From the IMG/VR virus record IMGVR_UViG_2850943043_000004, positions 62,001 to 126,000 of that record: a stretch of 64,000 nucleotides of DNA; one strand, given 5' to 3'. Below are positions 8,517 to 62,026 of this stretch, piece after piece. The position numbers were made by a program, and so were the translations under genes. Position 1 is the stretch's first letter; each line of letters begins with the position of its first letter. The notes beneath the pieces were generated by a model. The model searched no databases and was not told the origin of the DNA. It saw only the letters and a list, made by a program, of their open reading frames with translations. This stretch comes from an uncultured virus (IMG/VR IMGVR_UViG_2850943043_000004). Its lineage: Duplodnaviria; Heunggongvirae; Uroviricota; Caudoviricetes.

Positions 8517-8642
8517 ATGAAAAAACTTATTATGGCTTTAGTTATCTTGGGCGCACTAGGCACTTCTTTCATAAGTGCAGACTCTTCAATCCAACAAGCT
8601 TCAGGTGATTATGAGGTTGCTGGAATGCCACGTGGAGCATAA
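8517..8642 (+). CDS. aimP: arbitrium pro-peptide AimP (YopL); mature peptide GMPRGA
   Basis: MKKLIMALVILGALGTSFISADSSIQQASGDYEVAGMPRGA; AAAGGAGGT RBS. Confidence 0.97.
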   Translation: MKKLIMALVILGALGTSFISADSSIQQASGDYEVAGMPRGA

Positions 8643-26323: not shown

Positions 26324-27146
26324 TTGTTGAAGTTTAAAAACAGAATAGAGGAAAAGAGATTAAGGGGCAGAGAAGGCTAGCTTTGGCGGGCCTGACCTTC
26401 TCTACCGCACACTTCGCAAGGTTACGAAGCTATATAAGTATATCACAGCCAAGAAGTCTTTTCCAATCCTAGTAACCTCACTGTTTGCATTGTTTAATCA
26501 AAGTTCAGTTCTAGCTGCAGATAAGTATAGTAATTTTAAAGAGTTGAAAGCAAATGAGTCACCTTTGAGCTATAACATTCTAACTACCGATGTTGATAGG
26601 CGTGTGCTTATTTTGGCTCCTCATGGTGGAGGTATTGAAGGAGGGACTAGTGAGCTTGCAAGAGAATTAAGTAAGTCTTACTCTACCTATCTATTTGAAG
26701 GTTTAAGAATACCAGGAGCTTCTGAGTTGCATATTACAAGTACGAATTTTGATGAACCTCAAGCTTTAGATTTATTAAGTAAGCATGATTTAACAATCTC
26801 AATTCATGGGTATGCATCAAGTAAGAAACACACTTTAGTTGGTGGGACAGACAGAGAAAAAGCAGCAAAGATTACATCATTACTTACCGATGCAAGTTTT
26901 TCTGCAGAATTGCTGTCTGAAGATTCCCGTTTAGCTGGCACAAATGAGCAGAACATTGCTAATAAAAATAGCACTGGTATGAGTATTCAACTTGAAATAA
27001 GCACTGAACAACGAAGAGAAATGTTTAATACTTTTACACTGGCTGGACGCAATGGAACGCAGAATCAAGTGTTTTATGACTATATTGCTGTTCTAACTAA
27101 ATTCATTAATGAAAATGTGTATTGTATGGCCGGTGTAGCACCATGA
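26324..27146 (+). CDS. yoqZ: poly-gamma-glutamate hydrolase family protein (YoqZ/PghZ)
   Basis: APHGGGIEGGTSE, HITST.FDEP, SIHG and QLEIS motifs. Confidence 0.85.
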
Positions 27147-28902
27147 CATTGTTTAATAATACCTTACGATACTATGTTGACTTTGATCAGTGGGGAATAA
27201 ATGCATTTAATTCGAATCCAATTGAAACAACTAAAGGATTTAATGAAGCTCTTATATATGCATCAGAGAACAACTTTCCTATTGTTGAAATTCCAAAAGG
27301 GAATTTTATTATTGACTCAGTAAATACATTAAATCAATCAAATCCTGAAATTGGTGGGGGAATTAAAATCCCATCAAATATGGAGCTCCTTTTGGATCCA
27401 GAAGCAGTGTTTCAAGTTAACCCCAATAGGTATCAGGGCTATTCTTGTTTTTATATTGGGCTTGCAGAGAACGTAATAATTAGAGGAGGTCGTATTATAG
27501 GTGACCGGTATCAACATGATTATTCTCTAATTGATACCGATAGAAAAACACATGAATGGGGATTTGGAATACATGTTCATGGAAGCAAAAATGTTTTGAT
27601 TGAAAATGTACAAATCTTAGATTGTATTGGAGACAACATTTGGATTGCAGCTCACGGAATGATGAATTACTCAGGGATGGTTTATACGCCTTCCAAAAGT
27701 GTGACCGTAAGAAAATGCGAACTAAAAAGAGGGAGACGGAACAATTTAGCTACTAACGGTTGTGAAGGATTATTGGTTGAAGACTGTGATATAGAGGAAG
27801 CTGGAGGAGATACAATTGGCCCTCAACTAGGTATTGATTTAGAGGGTTACGGGGAAAACGGAAAAAAGTATGATCATCCTTATGAGTTAACGATATCGGA
27901 TTGCAGGTTTAGAAAAAATGGTCGTGGTTCGGTTACTGCTCATACAAGCGGTAAAGTTTCCATCAAAGATAACTACTGTGACAATGTTATTTCATATGGC
28001 TACAGTACAGATGTGAGTATTAAGGGTAACAAGATAATAAATGAAGGGGAGTCTAAAGAGTACGGAATAGACTCTGTAGGTGTTTCGAGCACTGAGACTG
28101 GCAACAGAATTCAAATAACTGATAACAATATTCAAGGGTTTAAAATAGGCATGATGATTAGAGGGAAAGGGGTATCGATTGATAATAATACCGTAAAGAA
28201 CGCTTCAAATTGTGCAATAGCAACACATATGGCCGAAGATGTTTCCATTTCAAACAACAGAATACAGGACAGCGATTGTATTCAGATCCAGGTGAGAAAT
28301 TCATCAGATATTAAAGTAAGCAATAATAAAGGGAAAGGTACAACTTCAGCATATGCAATTAAAGTGATGGATTCGAATGACGTTAAATTCTTAAATAATA
28401 CGTTCTCCAATCTTTACGGAGGTCTATATTGTGAGAGATCTCAAGCAGTCAGAATTAAGCTAAACGATTTCTTATTGAGTGGAAAAGGTTACGGTATATA
28501 TTGGGATAAAGATTCAGAAGTCTTCCTAACAAGGAATGAGATATTTGAACCAAGAAATGTTGCAATTATGGGGCAGCTGATATGTACAATATCAGAATAA
28601 GTGATAACCAGATATATAATTGCAAAGCAATCATTGCGATCCACTTAATAGGCGGTTCTGAGCATATGGTTAGAGGAAATGAAATCATGTTTAACAGAGA
28701 TTCAGATCAAGGCTATGGAATATATTTAAACGGGACAAAAAAGGTTCGATTAATAAGGAATGATGTTCAAGGTATTGGTGCAAGAGTGCTTTCGCATCCA
28801 TTTGCAACGTTTAATGCTTCCAGTACAACTTTAATACATAATACATACGACAGCGGCACACCTAGATTAGCCTTAGATGATACAGTAATCGATTATAAAT
28901 AA
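27143..28902 (+). CDS. yorA: YorA right-handed parallel beta-helix protein (frameshift near 28575)
   Basis: Pectate-lyase-like repeats. Confidence 0.8.
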
Positions 28903-28915
28903 AAAATCTCAATGA

Positions 28916-28927
28916 GAACACTTGTTC
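28916..28927. promoter_or_regulatory. LexA box upstream of yorB
   Basis: GAAC-ACTT-GTTC just upstream of a TATAAT. Confidence 0.8.
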
Positions 28928-28989
28928 CCTTTATGGGTTTTGGTATATAATTTAGTAGTACCAATAATTTCAAAACAGGGGATGAGAGT

Positions 28990-29284
28990 ATGAGTGAGCA
29001 GAAGCTTAGAATCGGAGAAATACGGTATGAGGTTTTCGATGATTATGATCCATTAACAGAGGAGTATTTAGGAAAGAACCTAGCAAATGCTTATTTTATT
29101 GCTGAAATTAAAAAGGAAAATGTAGTTCAAGTAGGGAATAGGAAATTAATTACTCAAGCGATGTTAAAATTGGTTTTGATGCATTCGGGGAAGAAACAAA
29201 AGAGAAATCAAAGAGCATCTTCTGGCTGCCTATAGTCTAATAGCAGAAGGGGCTAAAGACGATGGTCTAGTAGAATATTTATAA
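28990..29284 (+). CDS. yorB: YorB (frameshifted)
   Basis: Syntenic, SOS box upstream. Confidence 0.65.
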
Positions 29285-29346
29285 GGCAATGCTGGGCTAG
29301 TCTCTAAGATTAGCCTAGTTATCATACGAATAAAGGGGTTAACTGA

Positions 29347-29727
29347 ATGTCAAACATCATTTCTAAAGAGCAAGATGAAGCAATTAAATACTTTAGAAAC
29401 AAATTAAATTTATCAGACAAAGACTTATACATACCGTTGATTAATTTTGAACTACTTAGAGACAAGAACGAACAATATGCGAACATTCTTTATGAGCTGT
29501 ATAAAAATGATCCCTATTTGTTTATTAGAGCTTTAAAGGAAGGTTATGTGGTTAATCAGCCAATTGCATTTGATGAGGCCATTGTGCGATTCTTTAATGG
29601 AGAAGAACTGGCTATTGTACATAAAACAACCGGAAAGAGATTTAATGTTAATATAAAAATGAAGAAGCTGCCTGATGGATTTACATTGCAAACAATGGAT
29701 ATGTGGTTATGGAGTGAAATTGTTTAA
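29347..29727 (+). CDS. yorC: YorC
   Basis: 126 aa, syntenic. Confidence 0.7.
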   Translation: MSNIISKEQDEAIKYFRNKLNLSDKDLYIPLINFELLRDKNEQYANILYELYKNDPYLFIRALKEGYVVNQPIAFDEAIVRFFNGEELAIVHKTTGKRFNVNIKMKKLPDGFTLQTMDMWLWSEIV

Positions 29728-29741
29728 ATATTATGAATCCA

Positions 29742-29750
29742 TGATATAAT
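29742..29750 (+). promoter_or_regulatory. extended -10 sigma-A promoter
   Basis: TG-A-TATAAT in front of the micro-ORF array. Confidence 0.65.
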
Positions 29751-29773
29751 TCTCTTTAATCCTAAGGGAGAGT

Positions 29774-29853
29774 ATTAAAAAGGTTTTGGGGGTTAAAAAG
29801 TGATTAATATTATTGGGGGATGAGCTAATATGGAAGTTAGAGTCGGAGGCTGA
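29774..29853 (+). CDS. tandem heptapeptide micro-ORFs (I)KKV(L/F)GG, MINIIGG, MEVRVGG
   Basis: 24-nt ORFs 29800..29823 and 29830..29853, each with a G-rich SD; 29774..29796 needs one homopolymer base restored. Confidence 0.55.
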
Positions 29854-29977
29854 TCAACTCAGGAACTGCCATTGTGTGGCTCCTTGACCCTTGTAACTCA
29901 TAAAATGATAATTTTATTCGAATTAAAAAGAGTGCAAATGAAATGCAAAAATAAAAATATAAAAGTTTATAAACATG

Positions 29978-30005
29978 TAGACAAAGATAAAAATATGTAT
30001 ATAAT
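29978..30005 (+). promoter_or_regulatory. SPBRE/promoter upstream of yorE
   Basis: TAGACAAAGATAAAAATATGTATATAAT. Confidence 0.8.
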
Positions 30006-30037
30006 AAACTCAAGTTGAAGGGAAGGAGGCGAATTAC

Positions 30038-30424
30038 TTGGAGGTACTTGGGATAACAGAGAAAGCATTAAACTATTACAGAGAAAACGTTAAAGACAAC
30101 AAGACCATTACTCCTGATCAGGCACTGTTAAAGATGATAAGGAATGTCTTACTTGTCAAAGAAACTCATCCTGAGCGAGTGAAAAAACGTTTATTTTGCA
30201 CAGAGTACGCTTACGGAAATATGATAATCAAAGTTAACAGAAAAAAGCAGGTATTTGAAATTGTAAATAAATCAGGATGCTTTTCTGACCAAAATGATTG
30301 GAAGTTCCTAAAAAGAAGGCACATAGAACTTAGTAAAGAACTTGGAATCAAAGACTGCAAGTTTAGCAAAATTACATATTCAAAGAAAATCACAATAGAC
30401 AAAATAAAAATAGAGGATGATTAA
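30038..30424 (+). CDS. yorE: YorE
   Basis: Syntenic. Confidence 0.65.
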
Positions 30425-30428
30425 AAAT

Positions 30429-31342
30429 ATGACAGAAAACAAAACGGTATTACGTGAAGCATCAAACGTTGTAACACTTGAAGGAACTCTGGCAGAAGTA
30501 AGACACACTGAGTGGAAAAATGGAAATGGACTAAATATTGAATTAGATATTGAGGTTGCACCTAACGAAGTGCATACAGTTAAAGGCTTTTCAAAATATA
30601 AGAAAGCTGATGGTACAGATAATGCTATTGCCAAAGGGTATCAAACTATCATAAGTGATTATAAGTCCATCGCAGAACATGGAAGAGATCAAGCTGATAA
30701 AGTGAGAATCACCCAAGGTAAGATTGGATTAAATGAATATTACTCTCAAGGAGTATTAAAGGCGTACCCACAGCTAACCACCAACTTTGTAAACAGACTG
30801 GATGCTAATGAAGAATTTAATCCTAAAGCTGAATTTGATGTTGAACTGTTTGTTAAAAATGTAACTGAAGAAAAAGTAAAAGGAGAAGAAACAGGAAGAG
30901 TTAATTTAAATGGTTATATCCCTTTGTATGGCGGGAAAGTCATTCCTTTTACATTTGTAGTGACTAAGGAAGGTTCTCAATATGTTGAAAACAATTATGA
31001 AAAAGGATCTACGGTTAATGTCTTCGGAAAGATTATTAATTATAAAGAACAAAAAGTAACAACCAAAACTGCTGCATTTGGAGAAGACAAAAAGAAATCA
31101 CCTCCATTACAAAAAGAGAGTATCTAGTTACAGGTGGGAACGATCCTTATGATGAAGATAGTAAAAATGCTTTTAATCCAGAAGTAATTAAAAAAGCATT
31201 GACTGAAAGAGAGACTTATCTAGAAGGACTTAAGAACGAAAGCAGCAATGAAAACAATAAAAAGTCTGGCTTTGGTGGAAGTGCTCCTAATAACAAGCCT
31301 TCAAAGCCGGTTGAAATTTCAGATGATGATCTCCCTTTCTAA
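30429..31342 (+). CDS. yorF: YorF single-stranded DNA-binding-like protein (frameshifted)
   Basis: Restored C-terminus ends DDDLPF (SSB acidic tail). Confidence 0.75.
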
Positions 31343-31424
31343 AATAAAATAGATCATTAATCTAATACATAACTGGGGTGAGCTCCGACTCACCCATCAA
31401 ATTCAAAATAAAAGGAGAACTATA

Positions 31425-32396
31425 ATGGCAATTGATATTTTCAACCCACAAGTTTCTGTAGTAGCAAAAGGATTAGAAGGAAAAGTTATCACAATCTACG
31501 GTTCTAACAACTTAGGTAAAACTAAGCAAAGCACTCGGATGAAGAAACCGTTATATCTGCCATTCGAAAAAGGATTAAATGCCATTGCCGGTGTCCAATT
31601 CATGCCTATCAATAGTTGGGCTGATTTTAAAAAGGTAAACAAACAGTTAACTAAAAATGCTGAAAAAGCCAAAGAAATGTATCAGACAATCATTGTTGAT
31701 GAAGTAGACGCTTTTGCTAAATATGCGACTAGATATGTATGCGAGCAATATGATGTTGAACGGATTAAAGATGGTAATGATGGGTTTGGCCTTTGGAAAG
31801 AGTACGAAACTGAAGTATGGGAAGAAATCAATAAATTAATTGGCGTAGGATTTACGGTTATCTTTATTGCTCATGCTGCTGAAGACAAAAAAGGCAAAGT
31901 ATATCCGAAGGGGGATAAACGAGTTTTAGCTCCAGTAATTGATAACAGCGATATTGTTCTCTATCTAAGTTCTAATGGTGTTGATGAAGATAGAAAAGTA
32001 ATCAAATCAAGTGCTTGGTTAGCTGAAACTGAAGAGCATTTTGCTCGTAGCCGATTTGATTACATTGACACGTACCTTCCTGAATTTACTGCAGAAAACT
32101 TAGAAAAAGCAATTATTGAGGCAGTCGAAAGACAGGAGCAAGCAGAAGGAATTGTTGCTGTTACATACGAAGAGCAAAAACAAAACAACGCTTCAGAAGA
32201 ACTTGATTTCAATTCATTAATGGATCAAATTAAAGAAATTGGCATGAAGCTTAATGAAGAAGGCCGTTTAGAAGAAGTTAATGAGATTACAGAGAAACAT
32301 TTAGGTAAGGGTGTAAAAGTTACTGAGTGCAGCCGTAAGCAAGTAGGTGTCATGTCTGTAATACTAGATGATCTAAAAGACCTTCTAGCAGAATAA
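31425..32396 (+). CDS. yorG: YorG AAA_24/Sak4-like ATPase
   Basis: YGSNNLGKT, IIVDE, FIAH. Confidence 0.8.
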   Translation: MAIDIFNPQVSVVAKGLEGKVITIYGSNNLGKTKQSTRMKKPLYLPFEKGLNAIAGVQFMPINSWADFKKVNKQLTKNAEKAKEMYQTIIVDEVDAFAKYATRYVCEQYDVERIKDGNDGFGLWKEYETEVWEEINKLIGVGFTVIFIAHAAEDKKGKVYPKGDKRVLAPVIDNSDIVLYLSSNGVDEDRKVIKSSAWLAETEEHFARSRFDYIDTYLPEFTAENLEKAIIEAVERQEQAEGIVAVTYEEQKQNNASEELDFNSLMDQIKEIGMKLNEEGRLEEVNEITEKHLGKGVKVTECSRKQVGVMSVILDDLKDLLAE

Positions 32397-32438
32397 AAGA
32401 GGAGGGATTATTCTCTCCTCCTTATTAGGAGTGATTAT

Positions 32439-32908
32439 TTGGGGAGACAAGTTAAATGTCCTTATTGCGAGACCAAGTTAGACAAAGACTCAGCAATTCC
32501 TTATAAAAAAAGATATTACCATGAAAAGTGTTTTAATACCTGGAAGCAAGAATCAGATCACAGAAAAGAGTTAATTCAATACATATGCAATTTATATGGT
32601 CTTACATCTCCAACTGGCATGATGTTGAAACAAATTAAAGAGTTTCAAGAGGAATATGGGTATAAGCTTAAAGGCATTGAACTAGCGCTTAGGTACTTTT
32701 ATGAAACTTTGGATAATCAACCTAGAGAAGGTGATGGCATTGGAATCGTTCCATTTGTTTATGATGAAGCAAAGCGGCATTACATTAGACAAAAAGCCAT
32801 CCGAAAATCAGCTGAAGATCCAAAGAATCATAAAAGAGAAGAAATTACGTTAGTCATAAAAAAGGAATGAGAAAGAAAAGAAGACTAGTTGATATCTCAA
32901 CGCTATAG
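32439..32908 (+). CDS. yorH: YorH zinc-binding protein
   Basis: CPYC..HEKC; frameshift near the 3' end. Confidence 0.7.
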
Positions 32909-32922
32909 GAAGGAGAGTCCAT

Positions 32923-34434
32923 TTGCTACAAGACAAACAGGCAATAATTCAAGTTTTAGGGAGCATTTTAAAAGATCCCACAATCTTGTCAGAGAGCAAT
33001 AAATATAAGATAACTTCGGATGATTTTCCTTCAAGGTTTCATTCAATATTATTTTTTGCCATGAGCAACCTATTTCATCAAGGAACTGAAGTATTGAATG
33101 ACGTTGAAATAGATGGATATCTAAAGGATTACGATATTCAATATAAAATTTTCCATGATAATAAGGGTCTTGAATATATAGAAAAATACAAGAGTTGGCA
33201 GTTGTCGAAAACTTTGATTACCACTATAAAAGATTAAAAAGTTTAGTCTGCTTAGAGAAATGGATGGCTTGGGATTCGATATTAAGGAAATATATGATGA
33301 ATCTCTGATTGACCCAAAAGAACAAGAAAAGATGCAAGAACAGTTTGATAAGAAGTCGATTGATGAAATTTTGACAGCTTATGAAATGAAGATTGTAGAC
33401 ATAAAAGAAAAATTCAGAACTTCATCTGAAAGTATGGGAATCCAGGGTGGAGAAGGTATTAATGAATTATTGGATTCATTCGAAGAGTCGCCGGATATTG
33501 GAGTTCCATTAAATAGCGAAATGCTTACTTCAATTTTTCGGGGATCACGGAAGAAAAAGTTCTATCTGCGCTCAAGTATTACAGGTGGCGGTAAAACAAG
33601 AAACATGGTCGCTGACGCTTGTCGCTTAAGTGCAACTGAACTTTATGATCCTAAAAAGAAGGAATGGGTATCAAACCCATGGAGTGAAAGTTCTACAGTT
33701 ATTTCAACAGAAATGATGGCCGAAGAATTGCAAAGTTTAGCACTTGCCTACATTAGTAGTGTAGAAGAGAAAAAAATCCTTAGAAACACAATCAATGAAA
33801 AAGAAAAACAACTTGTTCGTAAGGCTGCTAAGGTTCTTCAAGAGTCTAACATATGGTTCGAACATCTGCCTGATTTTAATATTCAGGAGATTGAAAGAAC
33901 AATTGAAAAGAACGTCATTAAAACAATGTAGAGTACGTTTATTTCGATTATATTCACTCATCAGTAACCATTTTTTCAGAGATGAGCAAAAAAAGCGGTG
34001 TCAACTTGAGGGAAGACCAAATTCTTTTGCTTATGTCGGATAAGTTAAAGGGCTTATGTAACAAATACGATGTCTATATGATGAGCGCAACTCAGTTGAA
34101 TGGTGATTGGAAAGAAGCATGGTTAAAAGGACAAGTAATAGATGCTTCTTATTTGAGAGGAAGTAAGGCTATCGCAGATAAAACAGATGCTGCAATGATT
34201 ATTCTTCCTTTAAGTAAAAAAGAGAAGGATGCAATTGATCCAATTTTAAAAGAAGGATTTTATCCAGAGCCAAATTTTGTTACACATGTATTTAAAAATA
34301 GGGGAAATGAGTATGACAAAGTTAAAGTCTTCTCCCATATCAATATGGGCAACATGCGGATAAAGGACTGTTTCACAACAAATCTTGACAATGAACTAAT
34401 CACAGTTGAGAAATTGAATATAAAAGCAGGATGA
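32923..34434 (+). CDS. yorI: replicative helicase YorI (DnaB-like), split by frameshifts
   Basis: SITGGGKT, STEM, SATQLN and LRGSKAIADK motifs. Confidence 0.85.
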
Positions 34435-60517: not shown

Positions 60518-60541
60518 ATGTCAATTGGTCATGGAGCATGA
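60518..60541 (+). CDS. heptapeptide micro-ORF MSIGHGA
   Basis: GTGAGGGGA RBS, then ATG TCA ATT GGT CAT GGA GCA TGA. Confidence 0.6.
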   Translation: MSIGHGA

Positions 60542-61669: not shown

Positions 61670-62026
61670 ATGTTCCTTAAATGGGTTGAAAAAAGAGAGA
61701 AGGATAAGATGATGGATGACCTAAGTGCATTCATCGACAATCTAATCAATGAAAGGGATTCCCTTGTAGACAAGGTAAGAAAGCTCAGCAAAGATGAGGA
61801 AATCGCAAAATTGTTAAAAGAAAATGATAATCTTAGAAATAATAGCCTTCATACTTTATCAGAAAAAGAAAGAAATGAAGCAGATGCTTTTAGGGATGAA
61901 CATTTGGGGAAATGCAAAGGTAGCATAGCTTATCTTTTGACAGGAGTGAGTATGGGTACAGCTGTAGAGGTTATTTGCTCCAAATGTAAAACCAAAAAAG
62001 ACATTACAGACATTAGTACGTGGTAA
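61670..62026 (+). CDS. hypothetical protein
   Basis: ORF with RBS. Confidence 0.6.
   Translation: MFLKWVEKREKDKMMDDLSAFIDNLINERDSLVDKVRKLSKDEEIAKLLKENDNLRNNSLHTLSEKERNEADAFRDEHLGKCKGSIAYLLTGVSMGTAVEVICSKCKTKKDITDISTW

Follow-up and report, generated by a model that had tools for sequence, protein, structure and literature searches.

A conserved tandem cassette of seven-codon minigenes in the yorC-yorE spacer of SPbeta-like phages: a possible source of leaderless arbitrium-type peptides

The window considered here, a stretch of 64,000 nucleotides (positions 62,001 to 126,000 of the IMG/VR virus record IMGVR_UViG_2850943043_000004), is part of the 128.7-kb record of an SPbeta-like Bacillus phage. 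The spacer between its yorC-like and yorE-like genes harbors a tandem cassette of minigenes, that is, complete open reading frames (ORFs) of no more than about 8 codons, each led by a Shine-Dalgarno sequence (SD), and, as judged from comparison with related loci, this cassette is real, selected and unannotated. We envisage it as a translated, coupled minigene "moron" whose peptides act as ligands of arbitrium-type receptors; this statement as a whole, which draws on analogy with known systems, has in our view slightly less than an even chance of being correct. As to its parts, translation of the cassette appears rather probable given its sequence features, and the action of the products as receptor ligands, argued from analogy, is on the doubtful side. 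The components of the cassette, in the order of their occurrence in the window, are:

29742..29750, + strand: extended -10 promoter element TGATATAAT, scored 10/12 with TG in a promoter scan
29764..29772, + strand: SD-like sequence AAGGGAGAG, which serves ORF1 in relatives
29780..29803, + strand: remnant of unit 1 (ORF1), with AAG where 17 of 22 sequences have ATG; holds the first GGNGGNTRA motif (29788-29796)
29800..29823, + strand: minigene 2 (ORF2), GTG ATT AAT ATT ATT GGG GGA TGA, i.e., a start, six sense codons and TGA, giving MINIIGG*
29830..29853, + strand: minigene 3 (ORF3), ATG GAA GTT AGA GTC GGA GGC TGA, giving MEVRVGG*, in frame with minigene 2
29859..29887, + strand: 3' hairpin, starting 6 nt past the stop codon of minigene 3 (29851-29853)

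The evidence of selection comes from 46 yorC loci, the window counted, which were collected from GenBank phages, IMG/VR, species genomes and metagenomes; not all of these loci are independent (L077 and L012 represent the same place), and the alignment statistics rest on 22 distinct cassette sequences. The cassette is present in 29 of the 46 loci, the extended -10 element, ORF2 and ORF3 being intact in every one of the 29, and BLAST searches retrieved no cassette with a broken ORF2 or ORF3. The peptide MINIIGG is invariant throughout, with a single, synonymous change in its gene (GGG/GGA at 29817), and minigene 3 shows two synonymous changes, at 29838 and 29850, along with one replacement, at 29834, which turns the peptide into MGVRVGG in 7 loci. 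Units 2 and 3 were described in an initial annotation of the window exactly as they occur, and their frames and stops, the loss of which in homologous loci that annotation would have taken as an argument against its proposal, are preserved in all cassette loci. Its idea of a variable peptide "library", to be revealed by alignment of the yorC-yorE interval, did not survive the comparison: the number of units and both peptides are invariant across the 29 loci, bar one replacement of E by G.

The 54-bp core (29800-29853) contains 6 variable columns and no gapped ones, whereas in the flanks (29751-29799 and 29854-29899) 65 of 105 columns are variable and 27 are gapped (Fisher p = 2.4e-10 for the comparison with the core). 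The six variable core sites are 29817 (GGG/GGA), 29825 and 29828 (both in the spacer), 29834 (GAA/GGA, E/G), 29838 (GTT/GTA) and 29850 (GGC/GGT), five of the six being either synonymous or located in the 6-nt spacer between the ORFs (hypergeometric p = 0.013). In the frame of ORF2 and ORF3, the diversity is 0.108 at third positions and 0.013 at positions 1 and 2, in agreement with the values for the adjacent yorC, 0.126 and 0.023, respectively, and the remaining two frames of the core display the opposite pattern. These comparisons demonstrate strong purifying selection on the core, with coding-like substitutions, and are suggestive of selection on the peptides themselves.

The carriers include 20 GenBank SPbeta-like phages, among them the laboratory phages phi3T, Goe11-14 and SPbetaL2-L8, and none of the 20 records annotates the cassette, which illustrates that gene callers miss this class of minigenes entirely. 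Scans with the core pattern matched only the same 16 IMG/VR contigs and brought up no more divergent copies; one copy was found among 49 Bacillus species genomes, and a metagenome scan added another one. With regard to expression, the RNA runs retrieved, which share 0.42 of the words, represent the yorD form of the locus and are uninformative on the cassette. Of 4 runs compared with the locus, the RNA run skips 29725-29900, with 425 other letters in between, another one gave a partial contig at low depth from a library of unspecified type, and a raw-read run gave no reads.

The extended -10 element that the initial annotation had recognized ahead of the units, TGATATAAT, is indeed there: all 22 distinct sequences have this 9-mer unchanged, and 6 of the 14 bases just before it vary. 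We infer a transcript start near 29757-29759. Further downstream, the units are chained to each other, with the SD of ORF2 being the GGGGG inside the first GGNGGNTRA motif, and the SD of minigene 3 being the GGGGG at 29815-29819, within the Gly-Gly codons of minigene 2. The two SDs are located 7 and 10 nt, respectively, from the start codons, and their duplexes with the anti-SD, at -9.6 and -10.5 kcal/mol, rank within the strongest 2-3% of 13146 start contexts and lie near the long-ORF median; in the phi3T group, the SD sites read GGAGG. The earlier suggestion that the GG codons of one unit double as the SD of the next is borne out, down to duplex energies like those of long ORFs. All conserved stops of the cassette are TGA. 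The GGNGGNTRA motif occurs 3 times within 66 nt (at 29788, 29815 and 29845), as compared to 17 occurrences on the two strands of the entire 128.7-kb genome, and none of 2000 dinucleotide shuffles reached 3 copies; on the level of this motif, the triple array that had been claimed is real, including the place of unit 1. Among 1401 micro-ORFs of 5-9 codons that start with ATG or GTG, 3 end in GG, two of these being minigenes 2 and 3. Tandem pairs of SD-led mini-ORFs are not rare in general, with 19 such pairs genome-wide. In the window (29800-30018), ORF2, ORF3 and a 48-amino-acid ORF (29872-30018) share one frame, with two TGA codons in between; we consider this a chance arrangement because indels after ORF3 disrupt the shared frame in relatives.

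As for unit 1, the ORF proposed initially does not hold: its frame contains no ATG, GTG or TTG in the window and requires an added G, so that there are two intact units, not three. The extra base had been attributed to under-calling of homopolymers, a claim that seems right for other parts of the record and wrong for this one. On the one hand, seven sites lack a single homopolymer base relative to close relatives, namely 28570 (yorA), 29146 and 29208 (yorB), 29971, 29989, 30386 and 30401; such gaps split yorA (27122-28600 and 28582-28902) and shorten yorB to 81 amino acids, versus 98, and, judging by the sequences of the relatives, are probably assembly under-calls. On the other hand, within the run in question (29785-29792), there is no read error because the stretch T4G5 at 29784-29792 occurs in 16 of the 22 distinct sequences, the window and 15 others. 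In relatives, ORF1 takes several forms: it reads MVLGVKK, MVLGVEK or MVMVLGVK(K/R), with a stop overlapping the GTG of ORF2, in 11 of the 22 sequences, becomes MVFGG* via an extra T in 6, and lacks an ATG in the remaining 5, the window included.

The cassette is closed by the hairpin at 29859-29887, which is kept in 20 of the 22 sequences with energies from -11.7 to -16.8 kcal/mol; one of its base pairs is GC in 9, GU in 9 and AU in 4 sequences. These G.U pairs and the compensatory or wobble changes work only on the + strand, which is accordingly the strand of the hairpin; a minus-strand RNA was considered and rejected, given that the G.U pairs of both helices would turn into A.C mismatches. 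The hairpin had been called imperfect, and so it is, although only in the window copy, which is weakened by an A.C mismatch where 21 of the 22 sequences have G. Alifold supports this 3' hairpin only, with no competing helix, and the fold of the whole RNA is no better than that of shuffled sequences (z = -0.52). Only some of the variants have a U-tract after the hairpin, a terminator scan found 0 sites in the window, and there is no Rfam 15 match at E <= 1 across 27000-33000. The alternative terminator and antiterminator structures that characterize ribosome-mediated attenuators were not found, the locus showing a single conserved hairpin. Since the hairpin begins 6 nt after the stop of ORF3, a ribosome terminating there would, by this geometry, open it.

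With these data in hand, the following scenario can be envisaged. A sigma-A extended -10 promoter would drive synthesis of an RNA from the + strand, some 130 nt long and extending from about 29758 to the hairpin end at about 29887 (about 89,190-89,330 in the phi3T record), which carries the two invariant seven-codon minigenes and, in most relatives, a third, variable one upstream. The minigenes would be translationally coupled via the unit-terminal Gly-Gly codons (GGNGG), which would serve as the SD of the next unit, with the stop one base later. The selected products, if transcription and translation indeed take place, would be the leaderless peptides MINIIGG and M(E/G)VRVGG, and, by analogy, their most likely mode of action would be that of cytoplasmic arbitrium-type ligands directed at the peptide receptors, AimR-like or related, of rival elements.

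The analogy is strengthened by another minigene of the same phage, MSIGHGA, which had been invoked initially as a comparator and is indeed present: the ORF MSIGHGA* at 60518-60541, in the sspC-yotB spacer, consists of a start and 6 codons followed by TGA, with an SD of -10.9 kcal/mol. By an established rule, the N-terminal Met is removable before Ser or Gly and is kept before Ile or Glu. Hence removal of Met from MSIGHGA, where Ser follows, is permitted, leaving exactly the catalogued signal SIGHGA, the proposed mature AimP in 9 of 281 clade-2 systems (PMC13220667). Goe11 and BUCT082 encode the same MSIGHGA peptide with two synonymous changes, a different stop and flanks that are only 73-78% identical; the micro-ORF is present in 4 IMG/VR contigs and missing from phi3T and SPBc2, and SPbetaL5 has at the same place the allele MTIGRG*, which resembles ATIGRG and TIGRGG of the catalogue. 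This minigene was not found in print. Like the cassette ORFs, it combines a strong SD, a start and 6 codons, synonymous changes and the lack of both an export signal and an annotation; it differs in that it equals a rival signal and has allelic variants, whereas the cassette peptides are unmatched, invariant, arranged in tandem and provided with a promoter and a hairpin of their own. Judging by these sequences, this phage family seems to possess genes that encode arbitrium-type peptides without a leader, and it becomes more likely that the peptides of the cassette, too, are ligands; the MSIGHGA minigene would appear to work in the same manner as proposed for the cassette, with the exact signal of a rival. 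By extension of the same analogy, SPbeta-like phages might possess a leaderless peptide arsenal in which MSIGHGA copies a rival signal, and the cassette pair (ancestrally, a trio) supplies further agonist or antagonist ligands for the peptide receptors, AimR-like or other, of rival prophages, a speculative generalization that we consider rather unlikely to hold in full. If it did, a phage, whether resident or infecting, would falsify the rival's lysis-lysogeny census inside the cell, without secretion.

How well, then, do the cassette peptides fit the known signals? The AimP of this phage is a 41-amino-acid pro-peptide with a signal-like N-terminus; it ends in GMPRGA and is encoded at 8517, presumably next to aimR, which is the known arrangement. 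Of the clade-2 AimP peptides, 73% end in RGA, and INIIGG and EVRVGG do not. More broadly, clade-2 signals end in G-A or G-G, preceded by R, V, H, N or I (Table S2, PMC13220667), and both peptides fit this looser template, x3-[R/V/H/N/I]-G-[A/G], with no identical entry in the catalogue. Along with SIGHGA, Table S2 lists GFTVGA, RPGVGA and GFGHGA, and 23 of the 281 systems have signals ending in GG (DPGRGG, TIGRGG, AIGNGG, AMGNGG and KPGIGG; PMC13220667). EIKPGG and TIKPGG are reported for phages of the Wbeta type (PMC8878798), so that the mention of GG-ending arbitrium peptides in the initial annotation was sound. Gly is the commonest first residue of clade-2 signals (52%), and the sole replacement in the cassette, E to G, would yield GVRVGG after Met removal.

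The similarity to the AimP peptides of the SPbeta family (clade 2) and of the Wbeta type extends to the 6 residues after Met, Gly at position 5, Gly or Ala at position 6, and SPbeta-like carriers. The differences lie in the genes: AimP is made as a signal-sequence pro-peptide from a gene that adjoins aimR, whereas the cassette ORFs are leaderless, seven codons long, bounded by in-frame stops just upstream, and located between yorC and yorE, some 21 kb from aimP. Similarly, Rap-Phr systems have an exported precursor encoded after rap, and the cassette has neither a leader nor an adjacent rap gene. The pheromones of streptococcal Rgg, known as SHPs, are hydrophobic and end in ...IIIGG or ...IIIIGGG (supplementary file 5, PMC9765709), which is reminiscent of MINIIGG, but they are released by cleavage of exported precursors, some 22-30 residues long, that are encoded beside rgg in Lactobacillales.

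A number of observations weigh against a role of the cassette peptides as selected ligands. To begin with, the coding-pattern statistics derive from 6 variable sites in one shallow phage group, the third-position test taken alone gives p = 0.098, the central position of GGNGG could equally be free in an RNA motif, and unit 1 is decaying in several lineages. The products would be 7-mers, not 6-mers, because Met is kept before Ile and Glu. The initial annotation proposed to match the peptides to AimP and Phr C-termini, and no such match was obtained: none of INIIGG, EVRVGG, NIIGG, VRVGG and MVFGG appears in the clade-2 tables or in the RRNPPA propeptide file of the mBio 2022 study (PMC9765709), a file in which IKPGG appears 27 times. 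No precursors ending in INIIGG or EVRVGG came to light, with 0 of 35 and 0 of 55 IMG/VR hits being pro-peptide-like in a scan of TAA stops only, and a scan of 91 Bacillaceae genomes gave, besides the cassette, only two chance hits at ribosome-binding regions; these precursor negatives are weak, given that the precursor of the control, SIGHGA, was not found either. Furthermore, the cassette peptides stay constant while the carriers' own AimP varies (GMPRGA here, SAIRGA in phi3T, GIVRGA in Goe11), and the sspC-yotB minigene varies as well. What stands of the original proposal, a library that jams foreign AimR or Rap receptors, are the selected ORFs led by a promoter and SDs and the precedent of MSIGHGA; the variability implied by a library is gone, and the jamming itself is a hypothesis, plausible by analogy. 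In the literature, the cassette peptides occur in no main text of the relevant papers, and a search retrieved no publication on leaderless arbitrium peptides; the supplement of PMC10075063 lacks them, and it lacks IKPGG too, so that it may hold no peptide sequences. There is no IKPGG-coding sequence in the window.

Several alternatives were considered. One of them, unlikely in our estimate, although in line with the geometry of the locus and its conserved stops, is a translation device acting in cis: a ribosome held at Gly-Gly before a weak UGA would melt the 5' arm of the hairpin that begins 6 nt ahead and, in this way, tune termination or read-through toward the yorE early operon, or else shield the RNA from decay. 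Leader-peptide attenuators and 5' SD stabilizers are well established in Bacillus; the exclusive use of TGA and the SD near the predicted 5' end of the RNA would suit such a device, and arrest peptides, too, would be expected to conserve their amino acids. The attenuators of Bacillota (of the ermC, cat, bmrCD and vmlR types) share with the cassette a short conserved peptide, a good SD and a hairpin directly downstream. They rely, however, on alternative pairing and a dependent downstream ORF and have one leader ORF, whereas the cassette shows one conserved helix with no alternative antiterminator in an otherwise unremarkable RNA fold, two or three coupled ORFs, an inconsistent U-tract and no terminator-like site in the window; moreover, yorE has a promoter of its own, and in phi3T a different gene follows. 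Rather less probable is a non-coding RNA or DNA element, in which the GGNGGNTRA motifs would, for example, bind proteins or, by resembling an SD, serve as a decoy or sponge, with the ORFs being incidental. The clustering of the motif, extending to unit 1, which lacks an ORF in the window, and a 3' hairpin typical of small RNAs fit this possibility, and the conservation of the ORFs is partly automatic since the core is nearly invariant; nevertheless, the variation sits at third positions and in the spacer, the structure is limited to the hairpin, and Rfam offers no match. Several particular candidates of this kind were rejected: for a sponge of RoxS/RsaE, 75% of shuffles matched or bettered the duplex with the host RNA; for a CsrA-type site, GGA is not enriched beyond composition; and an antisense action within the phage finds no notable complementarity (best E = 0.19).

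Lambda bar minigenes, which are two codons long, exert their effect through being translated. If the cassette were bar-like, peptidyl-tRNA drop-off would tie up tRNA-Gly, and it is true that both ORFs end in two Gly codons followed by UGA and that an SD plus 7 codons falls within the range of 3-8 codons studied with minigenes (PMC2490762). The phage-borne bar minigenes and the synthetic ones are likewise SD-led ORFs of a few codons with translation itself as the product, but those of bar are single and work, in dependence on peptidyl-tRNA hydrolase, via the tRNA of the last codon, usually a scarce one, whereas the cassette has conserved peptides and common codons. Gly codons are frequent in the long frames of the phage (GGA 20.7, GGT 18.2, GGC 10.5 and GGG 8.3 per 1000), which makes sequestration of the tRNA unlikely, and such a function would not need selection on the first five residues; altogether, we regard it as highly improbable. 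Improbable, too, if less so, is that the cassette no longer has any function and is what decay has left of a longer gene or an old moron. In favor of this view, the slot is a hotspot that can be filled in different ways (by yorD of the XkdW family, by a CotD-like gene in SPR and by an additional gene in phi3T), many lineages have a unit 1 with a frameshift or without a start, and the hairpin of the window is weakened. Yet the core is far more conserved than the flanks and free of indels, and this contrast makes a dead remnant unlikely; furthermore, blastn and tblastn searches of 50,697 phage records yielded no longer homologue, only the same SPbeta-like loci, where the sequence is unannotated, and so the decayed longer gene that the initial annotation had allowed for was not found. 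An alternative frame of 24 amino acids (29813-29887), which we rejected as a gene, is interrupted by a TAA codon in the L010/L032 group and suffers a frameshift in phi3T. Finally, the second suggestion of the initial annotation, a decoy for ubiquitin-like defence systems that conjugate via a C-terminal Gly-Gly, could invoke the Gly-Gly termini and a neighborhood that includes tail genes and, for phages of the phi3T type, the anti-defence gene Gad1; it is, however, hardly credible, considering that ORF1 of most relatives has no GG end and that activating enzymes recognize a folded ubiquitin-like domain.

The reading of the cassette as a coupled minigene moron with ligand-like peptides is of interest because arbitrium serves as the model of virus-virus communication, and different arbitrium systems were only recently shown to engage in cross-talk (PMC13220667). 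Conserved, signal-sized peptides made without export would, if real, add an intracellular route of cheating or jamming to arbitrium. Even if the peptides act in cis, these would be natural seven-codon genes under selection at the amino-acid level, chained through Gly-Gly codons that are, at the same time, ribosome-binding sites.

The position of the cassette is in line with its being a moron, an accessory unit that is autonomous and sits at a late/early junction of the phage genome. The features around it are the following:

29347..29727, + strand: yorC-like gene, 126 amino acids, the last gene 5' of the cassette; no Pfam family
29723-29728: -35-like TTTAAA, at the 3' end of the yorC-like gene
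29900..29917, no strand assigned: palindrome ATAAAATGATAATTTTAT, the right-hand module junction, common to SPBc2 and SPR
29978..30005, + strand: yorE promoter TAGACA-16-TATAAT, which overlaps a repeated element and lies outside the cassette
30038..30424, + strand: yorE-like gene, the first gene 3' of the cassette

In this 310-bp spacer between the yorC-like and yorE-like genes, the homology to SPBc2 ends at the end of yorC and restarts at 29900, at the palindrome, within one base of the junction given in the initial annotation (29901), so that the segment 29728-29899 represents an alternative hotspot cargo with an extended -10 element of its own. The placement, in the same annotation, of yorD at this site in SPbeta proved correct: the slot of SPBc2 contains yorD, and the cassette, of about 175 bp, takes its place. 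In SPR, the CotD-like gene is on the opposite strand, and in the phi3T group the segment seen in the window is followed by one additional gene. As in other morons, a promoter and a 3' hairpin of its own, the activities of which are predicted ones, come together with presence or absence between conserved flanks and with alternative cargo. The palindrome, noted also in L014, L074 and L075, marks the module junction in every slot variant, and the loci of the phi3T group carry the exact reverse complement of ATAAAATGATAATTTTAT (the central GATA becoming TATC). Some loci have two copies of the palindrome about 500 bp apart, as if bracketing an exchangeable cargo. In phi3T-type phages (positions 32-919 of the loci L004 and L006, upstream of yorB/yorC), a gene annotated as Gad1 (anti-Gabija) occupies the place of the yorA tail-spike region, which makes the neighborhood of the cassette a hotspot of accessory and anti-defence genes.

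An AT-rich element at about 29978-30000 recurs at some ten places with up to 3 mismatches, look-alikes being found near 1628, 7252, 8939, 41289, 45669 and 59268. One copy lies about 1.3 kb before aimP, where, assuming the usual gene order, aimR should begin. The repeat is as would be expected for SPBRE, the operator of the MrpR repressor, which is reported to give a peak at the promoter of yorE (PMC10516654).

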